Virus record (IMG/VR): IMGVR_UViG_3300025078_000002
Location: 1-64,000 of that record
Source of the DNA: a virus
Lineage: Duplodnaviria > Caudoviricetes
Direction: 5' to 3' (one strand)
DNA: 64,000 nucleotides
Shown: piece by piece, positions 8,004 through 27,746 of the stretch
How the letters are laid out: each line of letters begins with the position of its first letter
Position numbering within the stretch: position 1 is the first letter of the stretch
The notes under the pieces: generated by a model
Seen by the model: the letters and a program-made list of their open reading frames with translations, nothing else
Told to the model about the DNA's origin: nothing
Database searches by the model: none
Position numbers and translations under genes: made by a program

Positions 8004-8010
8004 AATTAAG

Positions 8011-8038
8011 TGTAAAATTATTTTTTTTGTCATATAAT
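8011..8038 (+). promoter_or_regulatory. Putative promoter TGTAAA-N16-TATAAT upstream of thyX
   Basis: TGTAAA 8011-8016 and TATAAT 8033-8038. Confidence 0.7.
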
Positions 8039-8062: not shown

Positions 8063-8764
8063 ATGGCAAATACACATTATCTTTATAACGATAATATAGG
8101 AAAAGTAGAACTAGTTCAAAGTATGGGAGCAGATATAACTGTTGTAAACTCAGCAAGAGTGTCTTTTGGCGTACAAAAAGACTTGTTAGATGAAAAAGAT
8201 AAGAAACTAATAAATTATCTTATTAAACATAAACATACTTCAACTTTAGAACACAATGTTGCAACTTTTAGAATTAAGGTGCCTTTGTTTGTTAGATCAC
8301 AACATCATAGACATAGAACTTGGTCTTATAATGAAGTAAGTAGACGATACACAGATGCAGATCTGCAGTTTTATATCCCTTCAAGTTACAGAACACAACA
8401 TAATTCAAATAGACAAGCTTCTAATTCTAATGATTTTATTAACCCACAAATGGATGTATATAATATTGAATTAGAAAGTAGACTGTGCAATGAAGCAGTA
8501 TCACATCATATTGACAACTCACTATTGCTCTTTGAAGATATGATTAAAAAAGGTGTTGCAAGAGAGCAAGCAAGAATGATTCTCCCCCAGAATCTATACA
8601 CAGAGTACTATGCTACAGCTAATCTAAATAACATATTAAAGTTTATTGAGTTAAGAACGCATGAAGGTGCACAATGGGAAATACAGCAGCTAGCTAATTC
8701 AATGTTAAATATAATAGAAGAAGTTTGGCCCGTGACTGTTTCTGCATATCGTTCTAAAAACTAG
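8063..8764 (+). CDS. thyX: Flavin-dependent thymidylate synthase
   Basis: VNSARVS, HTSTLEH, RHRTWSYNEVSRRY (canonical ThyX motif), AREQARMILPQ and HAQWEI-like segment. ATG 8063 after AAAGGA. Confidence 0.92.
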   Translation: MANTHYLYNDNIGKVELVQSMGADITVVNSARVSFGVQKDLLDEKDKKLINYLIKHKHTSTLEHNVATFRIKVPLFVRSQHHRHRTWSYNEVSRRYTDADLQFYIPSSYRTQHNSNRQASNSNDFINPQMDVYNIELESRLCNEAVSHHIDNSLLLFEDMIKKGVAREQARMILPQNLYTEYYATANLNNILKFIELRTHEGAQWEIQQLANSMLNIIEEVWPVTVSAYRSKN

Positions 8765-9779: not shown

Positions 9780-9791
9780 ATTTATATTGTG

Positions 9792-9819
9792 TGTAAATAT
9801 ACACAATATATTTTATAAT
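9792..9819 (+). promoter_or_regulatory. Putative promoter TGTAAA-N16-TATAAT
   Basis: TGTAAA 9792-9797 and TATAAT 9814-9819, upstream of the second ThyX-like gene. Confidence 0.7.
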
Positions 9820-13661: not shown

Positions 13662-13698
13662 ATTAGACTCAACCTGTAAACTAATCGCATTGTTAGAT

Positions 13699-13720
13699 AC
13701 TTACTCTTAAAGGAGTAAGT
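13699..13720 (+). promoter_or_regulatory. RBS-sequestering hairpin with overlapping ATACTTA
   Basis: ACTTACTC (13699-13706) pairs with GAGTAAGT (13713-13720) over AAGGAG at 13710-13715, 1 nt before the ATG. ATACTTA at 13697-13703. Confidence 0.7.
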
Positions 13721-13721
13721 T

Positions 13722-14489
13722 ATGGTTAGAAAAAGTACACAAGTAACATTGATATGCACAAATTGTGCTTGCGAATATAAAAAACTTGCATCAAGAGCAG
13801 AAAAATCAAAGTTTTGTTCTAAGTTATGCAAAGATAAAAAGTCAATACAATATAAGATTGAAAAATGTGTTAGCTGTCAAGAGGAGTTTAAATCTAAAAG
13901 AGGAAAGAAATATTGTTCTAGAGACTGTTATATCAAAGAGCACAAGCATGAAAGAATGGATTTGACTTGTGACTACTGCGGCGATGTTTATCAAAAACCT
14001 GTTGGTAAACCTACGAAATATTGTGGTAAGCAATGTCAGTATAAGGCTCAAAGCAGCGGTTTACATGAAATACCTTCAAATGGTAGGTTAGGTTTTAGAT
14101 ATGATTTGCCGAGCAATTACTTTTTTAAGTCATCTTTAGAGGCAGACTATGCGAGATGGTGTGAAGCTACAAAAAAACCTTATGTTTATGAGCATAAAAC
14201 ATTTACAGTTCAATATGATGGAAGAGACAAGCAGTATACACCGGACTTTTATCATCCCGATGAGGATAGATATGTAGAGTTAAAAGCAATAAGAAGAGAT
14301 AGGAAGTTTAATTCTAATCTTCTAGCTGCAGATATTTTAAAGCAGCAAGGGCTTAATATCGATGTGTTGTTAATGCATGAATTTTATAAAATAATAAAAC
14401 AAAGTGGTCATTATTGGACAGTTGACAATATAGAAAACAAAAATTATCATGGAACAAGAAGACTTATATATCTTAAGAAAACACAGTAA
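13722..14489 (+). mobile_element. Free-standing putative homing endonuclease (Cys-rich Zn-ribbon repeats plus PD-(D/E)xK domain)
   Basis: Repeated CxxCxxxF...KYCSxxC units, then FKSSLEADYA, YTPDFY and YVELKA. Confidence 0.75.
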
Positions 14490-15660
14490 AGGATTCGCGG
14501 CGTTAACTATAGTTTTGTTGGCTGCAGTCTTATCTATACTGTCATACATAGTAATACAATACGGAAGGATTTCTCTTAATGTTGTTGAAGAAAAACAAAG
14601 TTTAGATTCGTGTAGCGTGGGAGTAGGAAGAAGTATTATCAGCACAAACGATATTGAGAGTATTTGTTCTAGTGGTTTTTTGAATAGCTGTAGTGGTTTT
14701 TTGAACATGCCTGTGCCGAACATGAGTTGTGTTGACGAAGGATTAGAGTGTGATGGTGTAGGTATATGTGAAAGAGTTTTTACTATATCATCTACGTACA
14801 ATCCTGGTCGTGGAGAAGTTTCCAAGGATGTTGTAGTTAAAGTCAAGGAAGAAGAGCATGATGTGAGTATTGTAGACGCTGCTGTAATAATGTTGCTTGA
14901 TTTTAGTGGTTCTATGAATGGAAATAGAATTACACAGTTAAAAGACACAGTAAGGTCATTTATAGATTCTGATTATAATCTAAGTTACTCTGTTATTCTT
15001 TATAATAGCGACATTATAACAACATCAAATATTGGAAAAGGTCAGCAACACAAGCAATCTATACACACTATAATTAACAGCAATAATCCTGGCGGTGGGA
15101 CAAATTTTGTAAAGCCTTTGAACGAAGCATTAAATCAAATACAAACTAGCAATTACGAAGTATACTACATACTTTTGATAAGTGACGGCTCACCAAACGA
15201 AGGTATAGACTCTTCGCAAAACTTTGTTCAAAATAACGTATTAAGCTTGAACAATGATGCATGTTTATTTACTACATCACAAAATCCTTGTATTACAGTA
15301 TATACTTTGGGTGTTGACAATGCAAACCAGAGTGCTTTGCAAAGTATAAGTGGAAATACTCTTAGTCAAAATCCAGAAGAGTATAGTTATGCAGTCAATG
15401 CTAATCAAGTGCAATTAGCATTTCAAGCTATTATAGAAGAGATAATGTGTAGAATAGGACCGGTTTTAGCTGAGTTACCTATTAACGTATTTAATGGTTT
15501 AGACTTGTTAGATGAAAACATTGATTATGTATATAATGAAGATACAAAAGTGTTTAAGTTTTATGATGTTGATCCATTTTATATCTGTACTGAAATGTTG
15601 AATGATAGTGCACAATTAACTTTAAGATGGGGAGACGTGAATTTAAATGTTAGCGAGTAA
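14449..15660 (+). CDS. TadG/PilX-like N-terminal membrane anchor fused to a von Willebrand A domain
   Basis: RKHSKG|FAALTIVLLAAVLSIL hydrophobic helix; MIDAS LLDFSGSM, GGTNF and ILLISDGSPN. Confidence 0.78.
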   Translation: MEQEDLYILRKHSKGFAALTIVLLAAVLSILSYIVIQYGRISLNVVEEKQSLDSCSVGVGRSIISTNDIESICSSGFLNSCSGFLNMPVPNMSCVDEGLECDGVGICERVFTISSTYNPGRGEVSKDVVVKVKEEEHDVSIVDAAVIMLLDFSGSMNGNRITQLKDTVRSFIDSDYNLSYSVILYNSDIITTSNIGKGQQHKQSIHTIINSNNPGGGTNFVKPLNEALNQIQTSNYEVYYILLISDGSPNEGIDSSQNFVQNNVLSLNNDACLFTTSQNPCITVYTLGVDNANQSALQSISGNTLSQNPEEYSYAVNANQVQLAFQAIIEEIMCRIGPVLAELPINVFNGLDLLDENIDYVYNEDTKVFKFYDVDPFYICTEMLNDSAQLTLRWGDVNLNVSE

Positions 15661-15886
15661 TGAAAACAAACAAGAAGAGATACGATTTGTATCACAGTTA
15701 AACAAAGGTGATATTATCAATGTATTTTATCACGGAATGTGTATTAAAGAAAACTGCTTAATTGTAGAGACTATTCAAGATCACTACTTTGTTAACGGGT
15801 TGATTGTTTACCTGAATGGTTTACAAAAAGAAACTATTGATTTAGAGAATAATGACGGATTGTGGGTTACTAAGGCTGAAGTTTAG
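15647..15886 (+). CDS. Small KOW/SH3-like hypothetical protein
   Basis: LNKGDIINV...CLIVE pattern; overlaps the upstream stop. Confidence 0.5.
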   Translation: MLASNENKQEEIRFVSQLNKGDIINVFYHGMCIKENCLIVETIQDHYFVNGLIVYLNGLQKETIDLENNDGLWVTKAEV

Positions 15887-15988
15887 CCTATTCCATGCTT
15901 TGATGCATTCTTTAAATAATTGTATGCTCTTGGTAATTTTTTCTTAAGATTTTCACCATCAGAATAATATTCTAATCATATCTGGATT

Positions 15989-18754
15989 TTAAGACAGAAT
16001 TAAAGAAATGTATTTTTTAATTAGCGTCTCATTTGATTCTTGCGGATCTTGCGAGTTTTGTTTTTGTAGAAGTAGATGTCTAGTCTCACTAATTAATTTA
16101 AGTATAGATCCTTTACCAAACATTTTTTCTATATAATCTATTACAATTTTAATACCTTCGTCAGGTAAATATAAATTGGCGTCAGGTGCAAGTGTTACAG
16201 CATAATTGACGCTTCGATGTATGCCCTTAGCAATTTTAAGAACTTGCCGCTGACTCATCCCACTAAAAAACAATGATAGCAGACTAGAATTATTTGCAAC
16301 CCGTTCAAATAAATCGTTGTCACCTTCTGTATAATGTATTCTACCTAGTTCTAAACTATTCATGTGAGCTTCTGGTATTGTTTTTAGCAGAGCAATAGTC
16401 TCAAGATATTGTTCTACACCTTTCGAAGATCTTAACAAAAGCATTAAAAGATCATTAAAATGTTTTTTGCTGTTTGGTTTGATATCAATATAACTAAAAC
16501 AAGCTTCACATAAAGAGATGAGTGTCTGAAATGGTAGCTTTATTTCATAACTAATCCATCTTAAATACATTTGGAGATTGCTAATATCTGGAGGAATATC
16601 ACCTGAAATTATTCCTGAAACTAATGCTTCAGCGTATTCTTTGTTCTTTGTTTCAACTTTTCTATTATTTTTAAGTATTAATCGGGTTTCTGCAGGCGTT
16701 TGTGATTGCTTGAGTTCATCAATTAAAGGACTCCAATTGTTTGCAGTGTCAAGCTTTTGATTAATAAATTGGTGGTATTTCTGGTTTGTAATCTGCCTTT
16801 TAATGTTTTCATCTCTAATGTCTAATAAATTTTGTTCAACACCCTGTCTAGCTTTTGTGCCTAATCTATCGATGTCTTCAAAAATTATATCAATTATTTT
16901 ATTTAAAAGATCAATTCTTACACAGCTTATTATTTCATTCTGGAATAAGGTAAAAACACCACGAGTCATATTGTCAATAGATCCTGCAATTTGTGCTGAA
17001 GAAATCGTATCAAGCTCTTCAAACAGAAACTGCTGAATTTCAGGTAATTCTGTAAAGTATTTTCTTTCCCAAGGAAGCTTGCAAATTGCTGTTTTATAGT
17101 CTTTGTTTTTTGTCGGAAAGTAAAAAGTAAGCATTTTTATTAAAACATCAAGTATATCTTGGCCAGTAAGATTATCTAAGCGACTTCGATATCTTGCTAA
17201 TTGAGCAACTTGATACAATTCTACGTTCATCATTAAACGACTATTGTCAAGACTGTTTAACTTATTTAGAGACTTTCTAGAAAATAACATATCATTTACA
17301 GATAAGTGGCCGCCATATTGTATGTTACGAAAAACTAACATACCATAGCTGACTTTGTCTGCATTTTCTATGTAAATATCAATAAACCTTTCGAAATCTT
17401 TTTTTGTAACACTTTGCTTGTTTATTGGAGAAGTTATTACATCTAAAAATCTTGGAAAATAATAATTAACGTCATTGTCTGTGAAATAGTTTATTTTTTT
17501 ACAAAGTTCAGTTATTAAGTTTAAGCATTCTAAGTGAATATTTTCTATGTTGTTTTGGTCAACTTTAAAGGCTTGTAATGGATTACCACCTGTGCCAACA
17601 GCTTTATTTATTTTGTTTTTTGTATTTGAAAATAAAACGTGGTTAATAAACATACTTTCTATTTTTAAGTTATCATTAACAACTAAGTCATAAACCTTTT
17701 GTATTGTTTCGTATGTTAGCTCAGGAGAGTCTGCAACTTTATTGATTTCATTGCACCAATAAAGTGTAGGCAAAAGTCCTTCTACACTTTGTAGTTGATC
17801 TTGTTTAAAGTCTTCTTCGTCAACATCGTTTTCTTGCGCAATATCATTTAGCGTTTCAAAGTCTATGTCTAGTGCTAGCTTTTGGTCTGGAAAAAAACTC
17901 GAAACATTTGAATGCCATTCTACTTCTTTACCTACAACTCTACCTAATTCTACAACTTTTGCTTTTCTTTGAGGATTGTAAACAACGCAAACAGGTCCGT
18001 CATGGTCACCTCTAAATATAATACCGTCTATGACAGAAGTTAAATACTTGGGTGTATAATTACCCATGACGTATTTAGTAAAAGAAAAAGCAGAAGATGA
18101 AGTTAGATTTTTATTGTTAGGATCGTCCACTAAATAACTAGTCCCATTTATTCGTTGTGTTAATGGAGTGCAATATTGTTTTAAGTCTTCTTTTGTTTTC
18201 GCAAATAATTCGTCTTTTGCAAGAGAAGAAAACTTTTCATCAAACAACTTTTCTATCTGGTCTTCTAGCTTCCATTTATCACCGTGAATTTGTTTAGCCA
18301 AATCTTCAAAAAATATAATATAATTGCTAATGTCAACTTCAAATTTAAAACATATATCCCCATACAAATGAACAATAGAAGGGTTAAAATCGTAACATGT
18401 ATATAATCCTGGGCCGTACATATCTCCGTGGCCAGGTGTAAACCCAGTTCCCACTGTATATGGGTCTGATAGCAGTTCTGTAATTCCTTGAAACTCTATA
18501 TCGCTTTTACTTTGCTTGGTTACACCACTCATGGCTTTATCATAAGTAACTCTATTAATAATGTTTCTAGCACGATCTTTGACTTTTCTTGGCTTGCTAG
18601 GCTTAAAAGGTTTTTCTGTATCTTTTACATAAGACGAGTAATCTTTAAACTTTTTTGCACCTGTTAAGTGATAAACTGAAAGCTTGTTTCCTCTTAGCTC
18701 TATTCCTTTATTTTCTTTAATAAGAAAATTTTCTTTTAAACTGTACTTTGTCAT
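15989..18754 (-). CDS. Large protein (921 aa) with [LI]xE leader and N-terminal ADP-ribosyltransferase-like domain
   Basis: Start MTKYSLKENFLIKE after an AAGG RBS. VYHLTG, YGPGLYTCYD and DGIIF resemble PARP/ART-fold strands; helical C-terminal part. Confidence 0.65.
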   Translation of the reverse strand: MTKYSLKENFLIKENKGIELRGNKLSVYHLTGAKKFKDYSSYVKDTEKPFKPSKPRKVKDRARNIINRVTYDKAMSGVTKQSKSDIEFQGITELLSDPYTVGTGFTPGHGDMYGPGLYTCYDFNPSIVHLYGDICFKFEVDISNYIIFFEDLAKQIHGDKWKLEDQIEKLFDEKFSSLAKDELFAKTKEDLKQYCTPLTQRINGTSYLVDDPNNKNLTSSSAFSFTKYVMGNYTPKYLTSVIDGIIFRGDHDGPVCVVYNPQRKAKVVELGRVVGKEVEWHSNVSSFFPDQKLALDIDFETLNDIAQENDVDEEDFKQDQLQSVEGLLPTLYWCNEINKVADSPELTYETIQKVYDLVVNDNLKIESMFINHVLFSNTKNKINKAVGTGGNPLQAFKVDQNNIENIHLECLNLITELCKKINYFTDNDVNYYFPRFLDVITSPINKQSVTKKDFERFIDIYIENADKVSYGMLVFRNIQYGGHLSVNDMLFSRKSLNKLNSLDNSRLMMNVELYQVAQLARYRSRLDNLTGQDILDVLIKMLTFYFPTKNKDYKTAICKLPWERKYFTELPEIQQFLFEELDTISSAQIAGSIDNMTRGVFTLFQNEIISCVRIDLLNKIIDIIFEDIDRLGTKARQGVEQNLLDIRDENIKRQITNQKYHQFINQKLDTANNWSPLIDELKQSQTPAETRLILKNNRKVETKNKEYAEALVSGIISGDIPPDISNLQMYLRWISYEIKLPFQTLISLCEACFSYIDIKPNSKKHFNDLLMLLLRSSKGVEQYLETIALLKTIPEAHMNSLELGRIHYTEGDNDLFERVANNSSLLSLFFSGMSQRQVLKIAKGIHRSVNYAVTLAPDANLYLPDEGIKIVIDYIEKMFGKGSILKLISETRHLLLQKQNSQDPQESNETLIKKYISLILS

Positions 18755-18779
18755 TATAAGCCTTGTTATATCTTTTATG

Positions 18780-18808
18780 TGTAAATATAAATATAATGTT
18801 GTTATAAT
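18780..18808 (+). promoter_or_regulatory. Putative promoter TGTAAA-N17-TATAAT upstream of dnaE fragment 1
   Basis: TGTAAA 18780-18785 and TATAAT 18803-18808 in the divergent intergenic region. Confidence 0.6.
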
Positions 18809-18834
18809 AAATAAAAACAAGAAAGGTATATAAT

Positions 18835-19752
18835 TTGTCTATTGATTTAATAACTCCACCAGACAGGTTTGTTTCTCTTCATTCTCACTCAACTTTTAGC
18901 ACTTTTGATGGATTAGGTTACCCATCAGATCATATAGACTTCGTACTTTCTGAATCACAAGGTATGGATGCCTGGGCGTTAACAGATCACGGTAATGGTA
19001 ACGGTCTTGCTCACGCACACTCGCACGCTGTCAAAATGCAAAAGGCTGGGAAAAAGTTTAGACAAATCTACGGAGTCGAATTCTATTTTGTTCCCTCACT
19101 AGATCAATGGACTAATGACTACGCAGCTCATAAACAAGCAATTAAAGATGCTAAAACAGCAGCAGCTGCTGAAAAGAAAAGTAAAGAAAAAATCATCATT
19201 GATGCTGATGATGAAAGCGGTGGTCTTGTTATAGAGGATGAAGATGAATCCAAAAAGATTGATATCCTTAAAGACGAATGGAAACGTCGCTATCACTTAG
19301 TCGTCACAGCAAGAAATAGAAAAGGCCTTAATAACCTATTCACTCTTGTAAAGAAGTCATATAAAGACGGCTTCTATAGATACCCACGCATTGACTTTAA
19401 AATGCTTAAAGAACACGGCGAAGGCTTACACGTAAATTCTGCATGTTTACACCCAGACACATCTTTACAGACGTCAGCTGGAAGTTTATCTATTAAAGAA
19501 GTTGTAGAAAGATTTAACAAAGGTGAAGAAATTCAAATTCTTTCTTACAATGAATATACTAGCAAAGCTGAGTTTAAAAAAATTATTTGGGGTGATAAAA
19601 CACGAAAGAATGCTAAGCTATTAAGAATTAAAGACAAAGATGGGAATGAAATTAAACTTACTCCTGATCATCGTGTCCTTGTTAAGGTCAAAGGTTGGAT
19701 TGATGCGAAAGATATTATAGCAGGAGACAAAATTATCAATATAAACCTCTAA
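18835..19752 (+). CDS. dnaE: DNA polymerase III alpha, fragment 1 of 4 (PHP N-part, 203 aa extein) plus split intein N-half 1
   Basis: SLHSHS, TDHGN, GVEFY, HLVVTARN and PRID are PHP motifs; extein ends ...VNSA, followed by CLHPDT. Confidence 0.93.
   Translation: MSIDLITPPDRFVSLHSHSTFSTFDGLGYPSDHIDFVLSESQGMDAWALTDHGNGNGLAHAHSHAVKMQKAGKKFRQIYGVEFYFVPSLDQWTNDYAAHKQAIKDAKTAAAAEKKSKEKIIIDADDESGGLVIEDEDESKKIDILKDEWKRRYHLVVTARNRKGLNNLFTLVKKSYKDGFYRYPRIDFKMLKEHGEGLHVNSACLHPDTSLQTSAGSLSIKEVVERFNKGEEIQILSYNEYTSKAEFKKIIWGDKTRKNAKLLRIKDKDGNEIKLTPDHRVLVKVKGWIDAKDIIAGDKIININL
19444..19749 (+). mobile_element. Split intein 1, N-half (102 aa)
   Basis: Block A CLHPDT, block B IKLTPDHRVL, ends GDKIININL followed by TAA. 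Confidence 0.92.
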
Positions 19753-19780
19753 GACAATATACTTAGTATTGTCTAGGAGG
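19746..19780 (+). promoter_or_regulatory. RBS-sequestering hairpin with ATACTTA at the loop
   Basis: AGACAATA (19752-19759) pairs with TATTGTCT (19767-19774). CCTCT (19746-19750) can pair with AGGAGG (19775-19780) with single-nt bulges. Confidence 0.65.
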
Positions 19781-19788
19781 CAGTTATT

Positions 19789-20739
19789 ATGAAAACAAAA
19801 AAGATTAATATATGGAAAATTAGAGAAGAAATACTTTTTTCATACTACGAAAAAGAAGAAATACAAAGTTTTATTGATAAACTTTATTCTTTTTCGATGA
19901 TTTACCAGATGATTTTACGAGACAATAAAAAATGCTTTAATGATTTAAACATATCATTACAGACTTTTTCAACACTTTTAAAAGATAAAATTGGCTTTAT
20001 ACTTCACCCAAATAATCAAAAAACTTCAACAGCGTTTAGGAGCCAATTCAAATTTCCTAAAAATACTACAATGGAAGAAATTGAAAATTATTATTTGAAG
20101 TCTTCTTTAAAAGGTCAAAAAGGTACAGTAAAGTCGAGAAAAAAATCTGGGAAACCTTACAATGAAAAACAGACTTTAGACTTTTGGTTAAGCATTACAA
20201 ACAACAAAGAAGAAGCAATACAAAGTTTAGAAAAGTATAAAAGATCTAATTCTCCTTTTTGTATTGAGTTTTGGACTAAGAAAGGATTAAGTGAAGAGAA
20301 TGCAAATAAAATAATCTCTGAAAGAGCTGTCAAAGGTGCGATTAATGCTCTTAAAAAAACATCACAGCCTAAAACTGAAAAGCGAATTGAATCTTTACTC
20401 AAGAAAAATAACATTGAATATTCTACGCAATATCGAATATCACTAGATAAAGATGAAACTGTGTATAATAAAAAGTGCTATGTATATGACTTTTATTTAC
20501 CTACATTTAATTTAATTATTGAATGTCACGGTCTTTATTGGCATGCTCATCCTTCGTTATACAACGAAAACTCTGTATTAAACTTTCCAAGTGGACAAGT
20601 AAAAGCAATAGACGTTTGGAATTCTGATTTGTATAAAATGAAAGTTGCAGAAAAAAGAAATTACCGCTATATGACTATATGGGAAAATGAAATTGACAAT
20701 ACAATTAGTTTAATTAGAGATCGTGTAAATATTGATTGA
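19789..20739 (+). mobile_element. Free-standing Vsr/DUF559-like endonuclease between the halves of split intein 1
   Basis: KTEKRIESLL, YDFYLPTFNLIIECHGLYWH and MTIWENE. Confidence 0.82.
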
Positions 20740-20769
20740 TTGTTTTAAAATATAAAAAAAGGAATAATT

Positions 20770-20898
20770 TTGAAAGAAATTCAAACAAAATATATTGAAG
20801 TTGATCTAATTGAAGAGATAGATGAAACTTCTGATGTTTATGATATCACTGTCGAAGATAATCATAATTTTTTTGCTAATAACATTTTAGTTCATAAC
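20770..20898 (+). mobile_element. Split intein 1, C-half (43 aa)
   Basis: Block F VYDITV...HNF and block G LVHN; +1 residue is Cys (20899). Confidence 0.92.
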
Positions 20899-22020
20899 TG
20901 TTTAGGCGGGATTTTTAGCAATAGAATACTCCGCGGCGTTGCACATGATAAGTCACGTGACGAAATCCAAAAAGATCTTTTAAACCTTACAGACAGATTT
21001 ACAGACGCAGTTGGCATTGAAAACTTCAAACTAGAACTACAGTTCAATAAGCTAAACAAACAACACGTTGTTAATGACTACCTCATAGAACATCATAAAC
21101 TAACTGGCATTCCTCTCATCTCAACAGCAGATTCTCATTACCCGAGCAACGATAAATGGCAAGCAAGAGAGCTATACAAGAAACTTGGCTGGCTCGGTAA
21201 GAAAGATAACTTAACTCTTCCAGCATTTGAAGATCTTAAATGTGAGCTGTATCCAAAAAATGCACAACAAATGTGGGATGAGTTCCTTGAAGGGTACAAA
21301 GAACACGACTTCTATAAAGGGAACGAGCAGCTCGTTAAAGAGTCAATAGAAAGAACACACGACATTGCCTGGAATGACTTTGAAGATACATGGATAGATG
21401 TAAGCGCAAAACTACCAACAATAACAATACCTAACAAGACGCCCTTTAAACACCTATCAGACTTGGTTAAAAACGCTCTCGTTACTGAAGGGTTACATAC
21501 TAATAAAGAGTACGTAGATAGAGCTAAATATGAATTGTCTGATATTAAGTATCTTGGACACGAAGCTTACTTTATTACAATGTATGAGATCTTTAAAAAA
21601 GCTGAAACAAAGACATTATTTGGAGCTGGAAGAGGCTCAGGTGCGGGGAGTTTAGTTAACTACTTGTTAGGCATTACACAACTCGATCCAATTCCTTATA
21701 ACTTGCTTTGGAGTAGATTCTTAGGCAGACATAGATGTCTAGACGAAGATACTTACGTTATATCTGAATATGGTAAAAAGAAGATTAAAGATGTTAGTGA
21801 AGGCGAAAAAGTACTAACGCATACAGGTCAGTATAGAAAAATTATTGATAAGGCTATAACACAACACGATATGGCTGTTGAAATAAAATTTAATGGTCGT
21901 AAAATTATTTGCTCACCTAATCATCGTTGGATTGTTAATCGTAATGGTAACGAAGTAGAAACAATGGCATGCCATTTACAAAAAGGTGACAAACTAATTC
22001 GATTAGCCAGAGATAAATAA
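20770..22020 (+). CDS. dnaE: DNA polymerase III alpha, fragment 2 of 4: IntC1 (43 aa) - extein (279 aa) - IntN2 (94 aa)
   Basis: N-terminal VYDITVEDNHNFFANNILVHN|CLGG. TADSHY, GRGSGAGSLVNYLLGIT, LLWSRFLGRHR|CLDEDT. TTG after AAAGGAATAA. Confidence 0.93.
   Translation: MKEIQTKYIEVDLIEEIDETSDVYDITVEDNHNFFANNILVHNCLGGIFSNRILRGVAHDKSRDEIQKDLLNLTDRFTDAVGIENFKLELQFNKLNKQHVVNDYLIEHHKLTGIPLISTADSHYPSNDKWQARELYKKLGWLGKKDNLTLPAFEDLKCELYPKNAQQMWDEFLEGYKEHDFYKGNEQLVKESIERTHDIAWNDFEDTWIDVSAKLPTITIPNKTPFKHLSDLVKNALVTEGLHTNKEYVDRAKYELSDIKYLGHEAYFITMYEIFKKAETKTLFGAGRGSGAGSLVNYLLGITQLDPIPYNLLWSRFLGRHRCLDEDTYVISEYGKKKIKDVSEGEKVLTHTGQYRKIIDKAITQHDMAVEIKFNGRKIICSPNHRWIVNRNGNEVETMACHLQKGDKLIRLARDK
21736..22017 (+). 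mobile_element. Split intein 2, N-half (94 aa)
   Basis: CLDEDT, IICSPNHRW and GDKLI, then TAA at 22018-22020. Confidence 0.9.
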
Positions 22021-22029
22021 AGGAATAAA

Positions 22030-22170
22030 ATGAAAGACAATAATCTATACGAGATTGAGGAAATCAACTTTGTACATTACGATCAAGATATGATTGATAT
22101 TGAAGTAGAAGGCGATCACACTTTCTACGTTTCAGAAGACCCCATGAATGAATTTATCTTGACACATAAT
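22030..22170 (+). mobile_element. Split intein 2, C-half (47 aa)
   Basis: IDIEV..HTFY and THN; +1 residue is Thr (22171). Confidence 0.9.
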
Positions 22171-22809
22171 ACAAGCTGGCCGGATATTGACACAGATGCT
22201 GGAGACCGAGATGAGCTGATCAACGCAGCAAAAGAGTTATATGGCGACGATGCTGTTATTCCAGTATCAAACTTTAACACGCTTAAGCTTAAATCACTTG
22301 TAAAAGACATTGCAAAGTTTTATGATATTCCATTTGACGAAGTCAATAAGGTAACTGGTCCTCTTCAAGATCAAGTTATGCAGAAAGCAATGGATAAAAA
22401 TCAAGAAAAGTCTGTATTTGTTCTTAAGCATGAAGACTGCATGAAATATTCACCAGAGTATAACGAATTTATGACAACATATCCAGAAGTTGCTGAACAT
22501 GTAGATACTTTGTTTATGCAAAATAGAAGTTGTTTTACTAAAGATACACATATCTTGACTGATCGTGGTTATATGGACATTGAAGAACTTAATCCTGTGT
22601 CTGATGGAATTGTTTATATTGACAATGAAGGCAATCAAAAAGTTAATCACGACTATGAATTGCATTATATGGGTAAAAAAGAAGTGTTTGAAATTGAAAC
22701 AGAATGTGGAAAAAAGATTAAACTTACTCCAGATCATGAAGTTATGACCCAAGATGGGTATAAAAAAGTATGTGAACTAAGTGAAAGTGATATATTGATT
22801 AAATTTTAA
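22030..22809 (+). CDS. dnaE: DNA polymerase III alpha, fragment 3 of 4: IntC2 (47 aa) - extein (120 aa, catalytic PDIDTD) - IntN3 (92 aa)
   Basis: IDIEVEGDHTFY...ILTHN|TSWPDIDTD and QNRS|CFTKDT. ATG after AAAGGAATAA. Confidence 0.93.
   Translation: MKDNNLYEIEEINFVHYDQDMIDIEVEGDHTFYVSEDPMNEFILTHNTSWPDIDTDAGDRDELINAAKELYGDDAVIPVSNFNTLKLKSLVKDIAKFYDIPFDEVNKVTGPLQDQVMQKAMDKNQEKSVFVLKHEDCMKYSPEYNEFMTTYPEVAEHVDTLFMQNRSCFTKDTHILTDRGYMDIEELNPVSDGIVYIDNEGNQKVNHDYELHYMGKKEVFEIETECGKKIKLTPDHEVMTQDGYKKVCELSESDILIKF
22531..22806 (+). mobile_element. Split intein 3, N-half (92 aa)
   Basis: CFTKDT, IKLTPDHEV and SDILIKF, then TAA. Confidence 0.92.
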
Positions 22810-22810
22810 C

Positions 22811-22851
22811 ATTTGCACCGCTTGCATATAGTTAATAGCAGGAGGTGAAAT
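22811..22851 (+). promoter_or_regulatory. RBS-sequestering hairpin with ATAGTTA in the loop
   Basis: ATTT-G-CACC-G-CTTGC (22811-22825) pairs with GCAGG-A-GGTG-AAAT (22838-22851), covering GGAGGTG. ATAGTTA at 22828-22834. Confidence 0.65.
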
Positions 22852-22855
22852 TAAC

Positions 22856-23842
22856 ATGTTATGTAAAATTTGTAATAAAGAATATAAAAATCTTGGAAGA
22901 CATGTAAGTGTTCATTATAAAAATGTAAAGTCTAAGTCAAAAAAAATGTTATATTTTCATGATATTTATAAAAACAAGTATGATATTGCTCGTGAGTATC
23001 TTGAAAGTAAAAAGTCTGCCAACCAAATAGCAAAAGAAGTCACACAACTATTTAATCTTTTTCCAGTTCAAAAAGGTGATATTTTAAACTTCTTAAAATA
23101 TATGAAAGTTAAAAAAAGAACAACTTCTGAAGCTGGTAAAGAGTATTACAAAGAAAATCCTGTTTGGAATAAAGGTTTGACTAAATATGATCATGCAAGT
23201 ATAGAGAAATATGCAGATAGTAGAACTGGAAAGAATAATCCAATATACTCACTTACTGAAAAAGAAAGAGAAGAAAAGATTTATTATTGGCGATTTAAGT
23301 CTGATGATGAACTCTTTGCAATAAGAGCTAAGATCGGAAAATCATTAAAGGAAGGTTATGCTTCAGGCAGAATAAAACATATATCTAAAACACATCCAGA
23401 AAAATTTAAAGAAATACACGCGAAAATGCTGTCTGGATATTTTGATGCATTAAATAATGGTACCATTAAAAGACAAAGTTACACATCTAGTTATGAAAAA
23501 AGAATAGCAAATATTCTAGAAGAGTTAGACATAAGTTTTATACAGCAGAAGTCTTGTAATAAAAAATATAGGTACGACTTTTTCTTGAAAGACTTTAATC
23601 TTTATATTGAATTTAATGGTGACTACTGGCATGCTAATCCGAATCAGTTTAATGAAAATTATTATCATCCTCATAAAAAGATTTTAGCAAGAGAAATATG
23701 GGAGTATGATAATGCCAAGCGTGTAAATGTAATAAATAGTGGTTATAATTTTTTAACAATATGGGAATGTGACGTCAAAGAATTCAATAGACAGCACTTG
23801 AAGGAGTATATAATTGGAATTATTAAGAATCAAAAGCATTAA
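22856..23842 (+). mobile_element. Free-standing Vsr/DUF559-like endonuclease between the halves of split intein 3
   Basis: PVWNKGLTK (NUMOD-like), SSYEKRIANIL, YDFFLKDFNLYIEFNGDYWH and FLTIWECD. Confidence 0.82.
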
Positions 23843-23951
23843 GAATACAAACACAATTCAACCCGTTTATGATATACATCATAATATTGATAATAAGAAT
23901 TTTTATGATGAGCATCCCAATCTTATTGCAAACAATATTACAATATCAAAC
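23814..23951 (+). mobile_element. Split intein 3, C-half (46 aa)
   Basis: PVYDI...HPNLIANNITISN; terminal Ser-Asn (no penultimate His); +1 residue is Cys (23952). Confidence 0.88.
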
Positions 23952-25721
23952 TGTGGGCGTCACGCTGGGGGTGTTATTATAGCAGACGCAGACCTTCTTG
24001 AGCAATCGATGCCAATTGTTGGTGTTCGTGGAGAACTACAAACACCGTGGACTGAAGGTATGAACTTTAGGAATCTTGAAGACAACGGTTTTCTAAAGTT
24101 TGACTTCTTAGGTTTAACGCTTCTTAAAGATGTAGAGAATTGCATTTATAGAATCCTAAGAAAAAGCGGAATGAAAAATCCTACATTCACAGATGCAAGA
24201 GCATTCTTTGATAAGCATTTAAACTGTAGGTTTGTCAAACAGGATGACCCTAAAGTTTGGGAACATGTGTATAAGGATGGTCACTTCGTTGGCATATTCC
24301 AGTTCACAAATCAGGGTGCTAGACAGTTTTCAATGGATGCATCGCCTGTAAGTATACAGGAGTTAGCAACAATTACTGCGATATATCGCCCTGGACCGCT
24401 TAAAGCAAATGTGCACAAGAAATATGTTAAGGCAAAAAACAATGCTAATGATATTGTGTACGATCATCCTATCATAGAAGAAGTACTTGGATATACTTAC
24501 GGCTACTTTTGCTTTCAAGAGCAATTCATGTTGATGGCACAAAAGCTTGCTGGGTTTTCACCGGGTGAGAGTGATAAGTTACGAAAGACGCTTGTAAAGA
24601 AATCACTAGATACTTTGCATTCTAAAGGATCAGAAAAGGCAATTGCTAGAGAGAAGTTTATTAAAGGTGCCAAAGAGCTCAATGACATTCCTGAGAGTAT
24701 TTCTTCGAAGCTCTGGCAAGACATAGAAGGTTTCGCAGTTTATGGCTTCAATCTTTCCCATGCAGTTGCATATGCTATTGGGTCGTATTATGCGGCATGG
24801 CTACATACACATCACGAGACTGAGTGGATGGCAGCAATATTGCAATCTGAGAATGGTAATCCTAAAGGAATGTCAAAAGCCATTTCAGAGATTAAGTCAT
24901 TTGGATATGAAATTGCTGCAATAGATATAAACCACTCTGAAGCTGAATGGGAATATTCTGATGTGTTGAAAGCTTTTGTGCCGCCGTTGACATCGCTTAA
25001 AGGAGTAGGTGATAAAGCTGTTGAAGAAGTATTTGAAAATAGACCATATAAAAACTTATCAGATCTATTTTACAATGAAGTAGGAGAATGGAGACATTCC
25101 AAGCTGAACAAAACAGCTTTTTCGTCATTAGCAAAGATGGAAGCATTTAAGTCTCTCCAGGAGTTTCAAGATGATGTATTAGATAATCATAAGCAAATGT
25201 ATGATTTAATCTTGGATAACTATAATCTACTCAAGAAAGGTAGATATGGAATGACAAAAACTGCCGTAAAAAGAGCGTTAAAGAATGATGAAGAGATTGT
25301 GCCTATTGTTGATGAGTTGATTGCGAAGTATAAGGTTGTTAGTGATTGGAGTAGGAATGAAAAGATTAAGAACTATTTTGAACTCAGTAATGACGCAAGT
25401 GACGACCTATTGTTTCCACCTAGATTATTGAACAAGTTAAAACAGAAAGAAATCTCCAGTGTGTTTGATATACCTTCTGGAGATCGTGGTATTGGATGGT
25501 TTACAGTGACTGAGGTTATTCGTAAGACGACTAAGAACGGGAAGGCGTTTATGAGGTGGAAGTGTGTAGACTCAGACAATCGTAGCGGATGGTTACGAGT
25601 TTGGGGGTCATTAGATGGCGAGGTTGAGTTTAGTACGTGGCTTGCTGATGTGAAGAATGATGCTGGATGGGGAATGTCTACGAATCTAGGTAAGCTTAAA
25701 AAGATTAACGCTTTTGATTAA
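23814..25721 (+). CDS. dnaE: DNA polymerase III alpha, fragment 4 of 4: IntC3 (46 aa) plus 589 aa extein (palm, fingers, HhH, OB)
   Basis: ISN|CGRHAGGVII, LKFDFLGL, GIFQF, AIYRPGP, FQEQFM, YGFNLSHA, LKGVG (HhH) and terminal OB-like strands. TTG after AAGGAG. Confidence 0.93.
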   Translation: MELLRIKSIKNTNTIQPVYDIHHNIDNKNFYDEHPNLIANNITISNCGRHAGGVIIADADLLEQSMPIVGVRGELQTPWTEGMNFRNLEDNGFLKFDFLGLTLLKDVENCIYRILRKSGMKNPTFTDARAFFDKHLNCRFVKQDDPKVWEHVYKDGHFVGIFQFTNQGARQFSMDASPVSIQELATITAIYRPGPLKANVHKKYVKAKNNANDIVYDHPIIEEVLGYTYGYFCFQEQFMLMAQKLAGFSPGESDKLRKTLVKKSLDTLHSKGSEKAIAREKFIKGAKELNDIPESISSKLWQDIEGFAVYGFNLSHAVAYAIGSYYAAWLHTHHETEWMAAILQSENGNPKGMSKAISEIKSFGYEIAAIDINHSEAEWEYSDVLKAFVPPLTSLKGVGDKAVEEVFENRPYKNLSDLFYNEVGEWRHSKLNKTAFSSLAKMEAFKSLQEFQDDVLDNHKQMYDLILDNYNLLKKGRYGMTKTAVKRALKNDEEIVPIVDELIAKYKVVSDWSRNEKIKNYFELSNDASDDLLFPPRLLNKLKQKEISSVFDIPSGDRGIGWFTVTEVIRKTTKNGKAFMRWKCVDSDNRSGWLRVWGSLDGEVEFSTWLADVKNDAGWGMSTNLGKLKKINAFD

Positions 25722-25733
25722 CAATATTTACAA

Positions 25734-26300
25734 CTAAAATCTGTAAGCATCAATGTCTTGTTGCGACATTAAACCAGACTGCTGCAAAAACATTTTAAAA
25801 GCTTCGCTTTCGTTTGATATACCGACAAAAAGTTTAGAAGGACCACCAGCTACACGACAAGCCTTAAAAAATTCTTCTTCAAGCATATCAATTTGATTCT
25901 TCATGTCAGCACGAAACTTGTCTTGAAGTTGTCTGTTTTCAAACGCCTCGAGAATAATGTCAATCGAACCAGCTACGGTAACACCTACGCTAATTGTAGT
26001 TAAAGCTGAACCTGCAATTAATGCAGGTGTCCCTACAGCTAACATTGCAGCCATACCAATTACAAAAGCAGAAACTCCAGGATAGTATTCTTGTATCTCT
26101 TGTCTTCCACTTGCACTTCTCATTGCGTTAACAGCTTCTTCCCAGCTGTTTACTTTTTGCCTTAAGATATTTGACTTTTCATGACCGCTAACACCTGCTA
26201 GCGCGTCAAAGTGATGCATATCACCCATCATTTCATTTAATCGTGATTCTTTGATTACTTGTCTGATCAGCGATCGTAAACGTCTTTCTGTAATTTTCAT
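25734..26300 (-). CDS. Hypothetical protein with MKITERRLRS...IKE leader and a hydrophobic hairpin
   Basis: AGGAG RBS. VSAFVIGMAAMLAVGTPALIAGSALTTISVGVTVAG is a predicted membrane segment. Confidence 0.75.
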   Translation of the reverse strand: MKITERRLRSLIRQVIKESRLNEMMGDMHHFDALAGVSGHEKSNILRQKVNSWEEAVNAMRSASGRQEIQEYYPGVSAFVIGMAAMLAVGTPALIAGSALTTISVGVTVAGSIDIILEAFENRQLQDKFRADMKNQIDMLEEEFFKACRVAGGPSKLFVGISNESEAFKMFLQQSGLMSQQDIDAYRF

Positions 26301-26357
26301 ATTTGTTTTCTCCTAAAATATGTTCTTAAATATGTTCTTAAATATGATAAAATTATT

Positions 26358-26435
26358 GCTGATGTGAAGAATGATGCAGGATGGGGTATGTCGTCAAGCC
26401 TTGCTAAACTTAAAAAGATTAATGCGTTTGACTAA
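26358..26435 (+). pseudogene. Orphan copy of the last 25 codons plus stop of dnaE
   Basis: ADVKNDAGWGMSSSLAKLKKINAFD* versus ADVKNDAGWGMSTNLGKLKKINAFD* at 25644-25721. Confidence 0.88.
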
Positions 26436-26449
26436 GAGTTAAATTTAAA

Positions 26450-26926
26450 CTACATAATATATTTGTTAGTATCTGGGTCAATTTCCATAGGAGGATTTTG
26501 AACACTAAATACTCCTCTTTCCATAGCTATTTGGTCTATTTTGCTAATAATCGACTTAAGCTGATCTATACTAAATTTATCACCATAATTATATCTCTCA
26601 ATTGCATCACGATCTAAACCATATTGCTCAATTCTTGGATCTTCTGCAGACCGTCTGTCTGAATAAAAATTGTTGTTTACTTCAATCATATCGATGCCTT
26701 CTTTTTGACATACTTCTCTATATTTGAGCATTTTTAACATATATTTTCTATCAGTATTGCCAGAGTATGATGTATCTGCCCATTCTCTATTTAACATTCT
26801 TCCCATATCTTTAATATAAGACTTTACATATTCTTCAACTTCTTCAACTTTAGGATCGTGGTTATCTATACTTTCTTTTATAACACTTCTAATAATTGAG
26901 CGTAAACGTCTTTCTGTAATTTTCAT
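26450..26926 (-). CDS. Hypothetical protein with MKITERRLRS...IKE leader
   Basis: Same 5' end as 25734-26300 but an unrelated body. Confidence 0.75.
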   Translation of the reverse strand: MKITERRLRSIIRSVIKESIDNHDPKVEEVEEYVKSYIKDMGRMLNREWADTSYSGNTDRKYMLKMLKYREVCQKEGIDMIEVNNNFYSDRRSAEDPRIEQYGLDRDAIERYNYGDKFSIDQLKSIISKIDQIAMERGVFSVQNPPMEIDPDTNKYIM

Positions 26927-27704: not shown

Positions 27705-27718
27705 TTATTACTCTTTTG

Positions 27719-27746
27719 TGTAAATTTATTTTAAATATTATATAAT
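27719..27746 (+). promoter_or_regulatory. Putative promoter TGTAAA-N16-TATAAT
   Basis: TGTAAA 27719-27724 and TATAAT 27741-27746, upstream of the kinase-TS fusion. Confidence 0.7.

Follow-up and report, generated by a model that had tools for sequence, protein, structure and literature searches.

The leaders of three nuclease genes (13722, 19789 and 22856, named here after their first position) were analyzed in a stretch of phage DNA, namely positions 1 to 64,000 of a viral record of 74,829 bp in IMG/VR (IMGVR_UViG_3300025078_000002; 31.7% guanine plus cytosine, G+C). This 64-kb stretch is referred to below as the window. Each of the three leaders presents a hairpin over the ribosome-binding site and, within or next to the hairpin, a heptamer of the form ATAnTTA (hereafter, the box). 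Related contigs of IMG/VR are up to 239,550 bp long, have terminal repeats and are classified as complete (G003), which indicates that the record covers only part of the genome of an uncultured marine giant phage. Neither a megablast search with the region nor a tblastn search with the protein of gene 13722 yielded any match among cultured phage records.

Two of the nuclease genes belong to the locus of dnaE, which consists of four open reading frames (ORFs) whose ends carry the N- and C-terminal halves of inteins (Intein_splicing/Hint matches). Because the exteins are contiguous in the relatives G003 and G001, the dnaE gene of the window contains three split inteins (Table 1). The proteins of genes 19789 and 22856 match phrog_559 and phrog_22677, and their matches to the Vsr family TIGR00632 are weak (E = 8e-4 and 0.035). 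The Vsr structures 1cw0 and 1vsr (PDB) align over residues 211-308, and these weak but consistent matches to a C-terminal domain suggest that both genes encode Vsr-like homing endonucleases. The locus presents the layout of a fractured gene, with intein halves at the ends of the ORFs and an ORF with weak Vsr-like matches between them. Neither G001 nor G003 has the first split intein or its endonuclease gene, an absence that fits mobile elements. A preliminary description of this DNA had proposed that three unrelated nucleases converged on the same switch; this does not hold, as the two endonuclease genes are homologous (28% identity; E = 5e-16) and the third gene, 13722, encodes a conserved resident nuclease.

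Gene 13722 encodes a protein whose C-terminal half is of the PD-(D/E)xK type and nearly invariant among homologs. The gene follows an epimerase gene in 46 of the 46 loci where the epimerase is at least 55% identical, and the sporadic presence and absence typical of homing elements was thus not seen across these loci. It co-diverges with its flanking genes, yet is better conserved than its neighbors. This synteny and this conservation indicate a core nuclease rather than a homing element, and an identity as mobile homing endonuclease was ruled out by the synteny and the co-divergence with the flanks. The family resembles T7 endonuclease I weakly: 13 of 16 members match PF05367, with a best E-value of 9e-5 that falls below the curated gathering cut-off. 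A Foldseek search with the predicted structure (predicted local distance difference test, pLDDT, of 77) returned weak PD-(D/E)xK matches to I-Bth0305I, Bax1, TnsA and RecU, none of them below E = 1e-3, and a profile search of the PDB with the protein gave no match below this value either. Across the loci L081-L134, the C-terminal 140 residues are almost invariant and the neighboring genes are only 55-80% identical; the near-invariant C-terminus suggests an essential role.

Table 1. Coordinates of the genes, hairpins, boxes and candidate promoters discussed in the text
Feature	Position	Strand	Description
Conserved core nuclease gene, 255 amino acids	13722..14489	+	Three CxxC...CxxC zinc ribbons and PD-(D/E)xK domain
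dnaE piece 1	18835..19752	+	PHP domain and N-half of split intein 1
Vsr-like free-standing homing endonuclease gene (putative)	19789..20739	+	Between the halves of split intein 1
dnaE piece 2	20770..22020	+	Joined to piece 3 by split intein 2
dnaE piece 3	22030..22809	+	No gene between the halves of split intein 2
Vsr-like free-standing homing endonuclease gene (putative)	22856..23842	+	Between the halves of split intein 3
dnaE piece 4	23814..25721	+	Start overlapped over 29 nucleotides by endonuclease gene 22856-23842
Hairpin 1	13699..13720	+	9-bp stem 13699-13707/13712-13720 (8 Watson-Crick and 1 G.U), 4-nucleotide loop
Hairpin 2	19746..19780	+	5 bp, bulge, 9 bp, 5-nucleotide loop; masks AGGAGG 19775-19780
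Hairpin 3, bulged	22816..22847	+	Masks AGGAGGTG at 22840-22847
ATACTTA box	13697..13703	+	Overlaps the start of the 5' arm of hairpin 1
ATACTTA box	19759..19765	+	End of the 5' arm and loop of hairpin 2
ATAGTTA box	22828..22834	+	Spans inner stem and loop of hairpin 3
Fourth copy of the layout	56328..56361	+	CCTCCTT 56328-56334, ATAGTTA 56342-56348 in loop, AAGGAGG 56355-56361
Early-type promoter candidate	18779..18808	+	GTGTAAA-N17-TATAAT, 27 nucleotides before dnaE piece 1
Early-type promoter candidate	20723..20751	+	Starts inside the 3' end of endonuclease gene 19789; 19 nucleotides before dnaE piece 2
Early-type promoter candidate	23721..23749	+	Inside endonuclease gene 22856; 65 nucleotides before dnaE piece 4
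Further early-type sites	8010-8038, 9791-9819, 27718-27746; G000 71064-71994 (beyond the window)	+	

Reading the sequence confirmed the three hairpins and their heptamers where the preliminary description had placed them, the stem of hairpin 1 being of nine rather than eight base pairs when its G.U pair is counted. Hairpin 1 masks the GGAG of the Shine-Dalgarno (SD) sequence AAGGAG (13710-13715) and ends 1 nucleotide (nt) before the ATG at 13722; 37 untranslated nt separate it from the upstream stop codon. The two other hairpins lie much closer to the preceding ORF: dnaE piece 1 ends with a TAA (19750-19752) that forms part of the 5' arm of hairpin 2, and 7 nt separate hairpin 3 from the stop codon of piece 3 (22807-22809). 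An alternative pairing of hairpin 3 (GTTAAT with ATTAAC and CAT with ATG) can mask the start codon. When each 5' region was folded in short windows with RNAfold, all three hairpins were recovered as minimum free energy or centroid structures. Hairpin 2 was the most stable relative to shuffled sequences (-18.9 kcal; z = -5.45; 0 of 200 shuffles), followed by hairpin 1 (-13.0 kcal; z = -2.3; 2 of 200) and hairpin 3 (-15.7 kcal; z = -1.7; 12 of 200; z = -2.1 in a 65-nt window). None of them is followed by a U-tract, and a terminator scan gave no match there; intrinsic terminators were rejected as the identity of the stems on these grounds.

We quantified the masking of the ribosome-binding sites as an opening cost, i.e., the free energy needed to force positions -16 to +3 unpaired within the region from -50 to +15, for the 88 called genes of the record. 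The average opening cost was 4.5 kcal/mol (standard deviation of 2.8). The nuclease genes ranked second (19789; 13.8 kcal/mol), fourth (13722; 11.2 kcal/mol) and seventh (22856; 9.5 kcal/mol), in agreement with the masking role first attributed to their hairpins. The chance that three random genes would all rank in the top seven is 35/109,736 (~3e-4). The SD sequences of all three genes are among the strongest in the genome.

We then analyzed the conservation of these leaders. Homologs of gene 13722 were identified at 54 loci of IMG/VR (53-99% protein identity), which yielded 40 distinct leaders. The opening cost of these leaders is much higher than that of 115 other genes from the same loci (respectively, 10.7 and 3.9 kcal/mol; P = 6e-17; Mann-Whitney test), although the leaders are phylogenetically related and this P value overstates their independence. 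The box was found at positions -24 to -31 in 33 of the 40 leaders, whatever the register of the hairpin. In the commonest register, GCATAnTTAyyy pairs with GGAGTAAnTATGC, such that the box faces the spacer between SD and ATG and CAT faces ATG; 81% of cells are paired in this register, relative to 31-52% in slid controls. The pair formed by the fourth position of the box varies (CG in seven cases, UA in four, UG in two, and AU, GC and GU in one each), with six cases unpaired, and two stem pairs switch between C-G and U-G across leaders. The frequent G.U pairs suggest that the structure is formed by RNA rather than being a DNA palindrome. Leaders of other sub-lineages (e.g., L105, L114, L119 and L124) use other stem partners and still hide the SD or the ATG, and the position of the box is unchanged.

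For the two endonuclease genes, fewer relatives were available. A pattern scan of IMG/VR with the protein of gene 19789 found no relatives, and gene 22856 has a 76%-identical homolog at locus L001. The SD stem of this homolog is weaker, and CATATAATTA pairs instead with TAATTATATG over the start codon; its box is ATAATTA, which is paired with the start-codon region. Members of the same endonuclease family on other viral contigs (L061, L079, L032 and L035) present SD-masking hairpins whose loop contains ATAAATA, the late box of the T4 type, as described by Dassa et al. (2009).

By itself, the heptamer is not an uncommon sequence: the 74.8-kb record contains 23 copies of ATA[CG]TTA on the + strand and 28 on the - strand. 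Its distribution relative to genes is uneven: in the window's genome, we counted 23 ATAnTTA motifs within 60 nt before gene starts, where 4.9 were expected, with a cluster at -25 to -40, and the form with C or G at the fourth position was found upstream of genes 11 times in the sense and twice in the antisense orientation. We ranked the 64 patterns of the form W3-n-W3 upstream of genes, and ATAnTTA still tied for first rank when the three nuclease genes were left out. The complete 239.5-kb relative G003, which was not used to define ATAnTTA, provided an independent test of the motif. On the sense strand of G003, the motif peaks at -45 to -31 from start codons. It is the first of the 64 patterns before non-early genes (60 of 217 genes; 60 sense vs. 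29 antisense) and precedes only 2 of the 64 genes of the early block of small ORFs (P = 4.7e-6; Fisher test). Despite this first rank, it is the least abundant genome-wide among the 12 top-ranked patterns. Genes preceded by the box in G003 include those of the tail sheath, the head-tail adaptor and the large terminase (TerL). No general association between the presence of the box and the strength of the hairpin was observed in G003, which indicates that the box is not a mere by-product of the stems. We looked for a -35-like partner of ATAnTTA and none was visible, as with T4 late promoters, and a scan with a sigma-70-type consensus was uninformative (74 sites vs. 70.6 in shuffled sequences).

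These results suggest that ATAnTTA is probably the late promoter of the phage. The preliminary description had assigned this role to ATA[CG]TTA: the placement of the motif and its in silico association with late genes speak for the assignment, while the motif itself had to be widened to ATAnTTA, whose fourth position covaries with its pairing partner. The phage encodes a candidate reader of such a promoter, a RpoS/RpoD-like sigma factor (53004-53756; E = 1e-56) that ends at position 242 of the 285 of the model, before region 4.2. The ORF overlapping the 3' end of the sigma factor gene (53746-54006) has no family match.

Other boxes of the window's genome were less informative. Orthologs of gene 15989 keep ATATTTATATTTACAC exactly; because this upstream region overlaps the divergent early promoter of dnaE, its conservation does not discriminate between the early promoter and the box. 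For genes 26450 and 29266, which bear a box and no hairpin, the pattern scan of IMG/VR found no relatives. On the - strand, the ribosome-binding regions and N-termini of two adjacent genes (25734-26926) are identical, and the two are probably paralogs; AGAACATAyTTA repeats lie upstream of each, and the box is present in two tandem copies before 25734.

A second motif, GTGTAA-N15-21-TAnAAT, is a candidate early promoter. It was found at 12 sites on the + strand (0.94 expected), almost always 19-90 nt before a gene of replication or nucleotide metabolism; these sites precede thyX, the dnaE pieces, a kinase-TS fusion gene and small ORFs. Within the dnaE locus, the sites located in the 3' ends of the endonuclease genes point to one probable early transcript for pieces 2 and 3 and another for piece 4. 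A scan for terminator-like sites on the + strand found none between 18.8 and 25.7 kb. The polymerase pieces would probably be expressed from up to three early transcripts, two of which would read on into a masked endonuclease gene. The single polycistronic dnaE RNA initially put forward is thus not required. In G003, where dnaE is fractured at a different place, the stop codon of the endonuclease gene forms part of GTGTAA.

Based on these elements, we favor the view that the three leaders delay translation by a temporal switch of the kind known from T4. Early RNAs would start at the GTGTAA-N15-21-TAnAAT sites at 18779 (piece 1), 20723 (pieces 2 and 3) and 23721 (piece 4), and gene 13722 would be covered by an early RNA from the upstream epimerase operon. 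These RNAs would enter the nuclease genes with the SD, or the start codon in some relatives, locked in the hairpin, and little nuclease would be made. Later, RNA polymerase directed to ATAnTTA would start a few nt downstream, inside the loop or the 3' arm. The late RNA would lack the 5' arm, leaving a strong SD free near its 5' end, and the nuclease would be translated. That the box is a promoter, where transcription would start and when, is what we infer from the sequence. In T4 late promoters, transcription starts 5-9 nt after the box. When RNAs were cut in silico at this distance from the box, the mean opening cost dropped from 11.0 to 2.2 kcal/mol (n = 31 leaders), as anticipated if a start inside the hairpin frees the SD; in the three genes of the window, it dropped from 9.6 to 4.0, from 12.5 to 2-6 and from 10.2 to 1.5-3.4 kcal/mol. 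The fourth position of the box may carry no weight in promoter recognition and serve instead to adjust the stem, which would explain why the nuclease boxes of the window have C or G there. Since the 3' ends of the endonuclease genes carry a candidate early promoter for the next dnaE piece, their insertion would leave the expression of the polymerase intact.

A broader reading is that ATAnTTA is the late-promoter core of a previously uncharacterized clade of ~240-kb marine phages, that it works without a -35 partner and is maybe read by the clade's own RpoS-like sigma factor lacking region 4.2. Invading endonuclease genes would have adapted the loop or arm of a portable SD-masking hairpin to the late box of their resident phage (TATAAATA in T4-like phages, ATAnTTA here) and would bring along an early promoter for the downstream piece. 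We regard the chances of this broader reading as about even.

Several observations weigh against the temporal switch. The box consists of six specified A/T positions in a genome of 32% G+C, with ~150 copies genome-wide. The box of gene 22856 ends 5 nt before the SD, such that a start 6-7 nt downstream would coincide with the first bases of the SD. Box and hairpin, which the preliminary description had treated as a unit, do occur together in all three genes of the window and are not universally coupled in the clade: G003 possesses a Vsr-like endonuclease gene with a hairpin and no box, and a GIY-YIG gene with a box and no hairpin. Among 23 assorted homologs of the Vsr-like endonucleases, masking showed a trend that was not significant (7.2 vs. 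5.7 kcal/mol; P = 0.10). Finally, the stop codons inside or just before the 5' arms of hairpins 2 and 3 imply that terminating ribosomes could open these stems on early RNA.

This last point is central to the alternative that survives best, although we consider it unlikely: the hairpins could be constitutive attenuators or devices of translational coupling without internal promoter. The ribosome of the upstream ORF would melt the 5' arm, nuclease output would be low and tied to the translation of dnaE, and the box would be irrelevant. The position of the stops of pieces 1 and 3 and the box-less hairpin of the Vsr-like gene of G003 are in line with such coupling, as are seven free-standing endonuclease genes of T4 that are promoter-less cassettes (PMC2988022). 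Coupling does not account for gene 13722, given the untranslated distance before its hairpin, nor for a box that keeps its distance in ~33 of 40 leaders, whatever the hairpin register, and is independently tied to late genes in G003.

It is also conceivable, with a lower probability, that the heptamer is a coincidence of A/T-rich stems, kept only through its pairing with the SD-to-ATG spacer, and that the true late promoter differs. The box is indeed short and made of A and T only, many homologs of gene 13722 pair it with TAAnTAT just before the ATG, and other A/T patterns are likewise enriched upstream of genes in the window's genome. We know of no sequence constraint on the SD-ATG spacer of its own, which counts against this possibility. 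Moreover, the box is kept outside the stem or in another register in L105, L114 and L124, and the motif, once defined on the window's genome, ranked first of 64 in G003, was depleted from the early block and showed no link with hairpins.

T7-like phages carry inter-cistronic RNase III hairpins, which would favor a third possibility, namely that the hairpins are elements of RNA processing or stability (e.g., RNase III sites), intrinsic terminators, or DNA operators for autorepression by the nuclease. Even though I-TevI represses its own late promoter through an overlapping operator (PMC2988022), we consider this very improbable, since U-tracts and terminator matches are lacking, stems of 9-15 bp are short for RNase III, a symmetric DNA operator would not accommodate the frequent G.U pairs, and the stems lie in every case exactly over the SD or the ATG. 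Overall, the in silico evidence supports much, though not all, of the initial interpretation, with corrections to the relationship of the nucleases, to the motif and to the dnaE RNA.

Control by a late promoter in a hairpin has been described in the T4 family for I-TevI, I-TevII, I-TevIII, segB and mobE (phage Aeh1), and for the T4 genes e, soc, 39, 25 and 26 (PMC2988022). As in these cases, the genes of the window present a strong SD that would be sequestered on long early or middle RNA, a putative -10-only box in or next to the 5' arm, and, inside the endonuclease ORFs, candidate promoters for the host genes that follow. In contrast, the boxes of the window (ATACTTA, ATACTTA and ATAGTTA) follow ATAnTTA and not the gp55-type consensus TATAAATA. 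The phage itself is also different, being a ~240-kb marine phage with DnaE and a RpoS/RpoD-like sigma factor, whereas T4-like phages have gp43 and gp55.

The closest parallel is the set of fractured genes of Dassa et al. (2009), DnaE included, in which hairpins were found in 15 of 16 endonuclease 5' untranslated regions (10 with TATAAATA) and the 3' end of the endonuclease gene overlaps the downstream gene (PMC2677866). In both datasets, split intein halves flank a free-standing Vsr-like (or GIY-YIG) gene and DnaE serves as host gene. The differences are that their box is the T4/Aeh1 sequence TATAAATA rather than ATAnTTA, that the dnaE gene of the window has three split inteins, two of them with endonuclease genes, and that the early-type promoters in the endonuclease 3' ends, which were only suggested there, are identifiable here.

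For the resident nuclease, other systems are relevant. T4 gene 49 (endonuclease VII) and T7 gene 3 (endonuclease I) encode DNA-branch-resolving nucleases that are made late. A review of T4 lists Barth et al. on gene 49 among hairpin-regulated genes (PMC2988022). The product of gene 13722 is similarly conserved and non-mobile, weakly T7-endonuclease-I-like and apparently silent on read-through RNA; unlike these enzymes, it has three zinc ribbons, located at its N-terminus, and its PF05367 match remains below the cut-off.

The mechanism is therefore already known, in T4 and in intein-split genes, and the window is a new example of it rather than a new principle. What is new here is a different box in a phage that is not T4-like, embedded candidate early promoters that can be identified, and a conserved resident nuclease for which covariation strongly supports a probable switch of this type. 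These results provide a testable promoter map for an abundant clade of uncultured marine giant phages, with GTGTAA-N15-21-TAnAAT as candidate early and ATAnTTA as candidate late promoter. They suggest how selfish endonuclease genes and a core nuclease could stay silent while the interrupted polymerase is made, with each endonuclease gene appearing to offset its own insertion through a promoter for the next polymerase piece. They would also show T4-type control at work in a phage that replicates and transcribes its DNA with different machinery.

The dnaE gene has been fractured differently among relatives. The halves of split intein 2 are separated by 9 nt in the window (22020-22030), and in G001 they flank an ORF of 324 amino acids on the opposite strand (L001:1113-2087, - strand), which is not obviously a nuclease and has ATAGTTA ~46 nt upstream. 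In G001, ~1.1 kb is also inserted after residue 21 of the N-terminus of dnaE (reverse-complement 15139-16221; L215-L216), an insertion absent from the window. G003 (46232-51195 and 67387-70418; L205-L206) lacks all three dnaE inteins of the window; its dnaE gene is fractured at another site by a Vsr-like gene of 328 amino acids, and the gene of its ribonucleotide reductase by a split intein that comes with a GIY-YIG gene.

Finally, masking hairpins that contain a putative promoter are found at other genes. The fourth copy of the layout (Table 1) precedes a gene of 67 amino acids (56367-56570; rank 6 of 88 for masking), and its CCTCCTT is a perfect anti-SD mimic for AAGGAGG. The third-strongest SD-masking hairpin of the genome (8020-8070) belongs to thyX (8063-8764), and its 5' arm contains the TATAAT of an early-type promoter. 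Early-type promoters likewise lie in SD-masking hairpins at 62881, 13689 and 7804 of G003. Gene 56367 and the thyX-like cases suggest that a promoter inside a masking hairpin is a habit of the phage that is not specific to nucleases.

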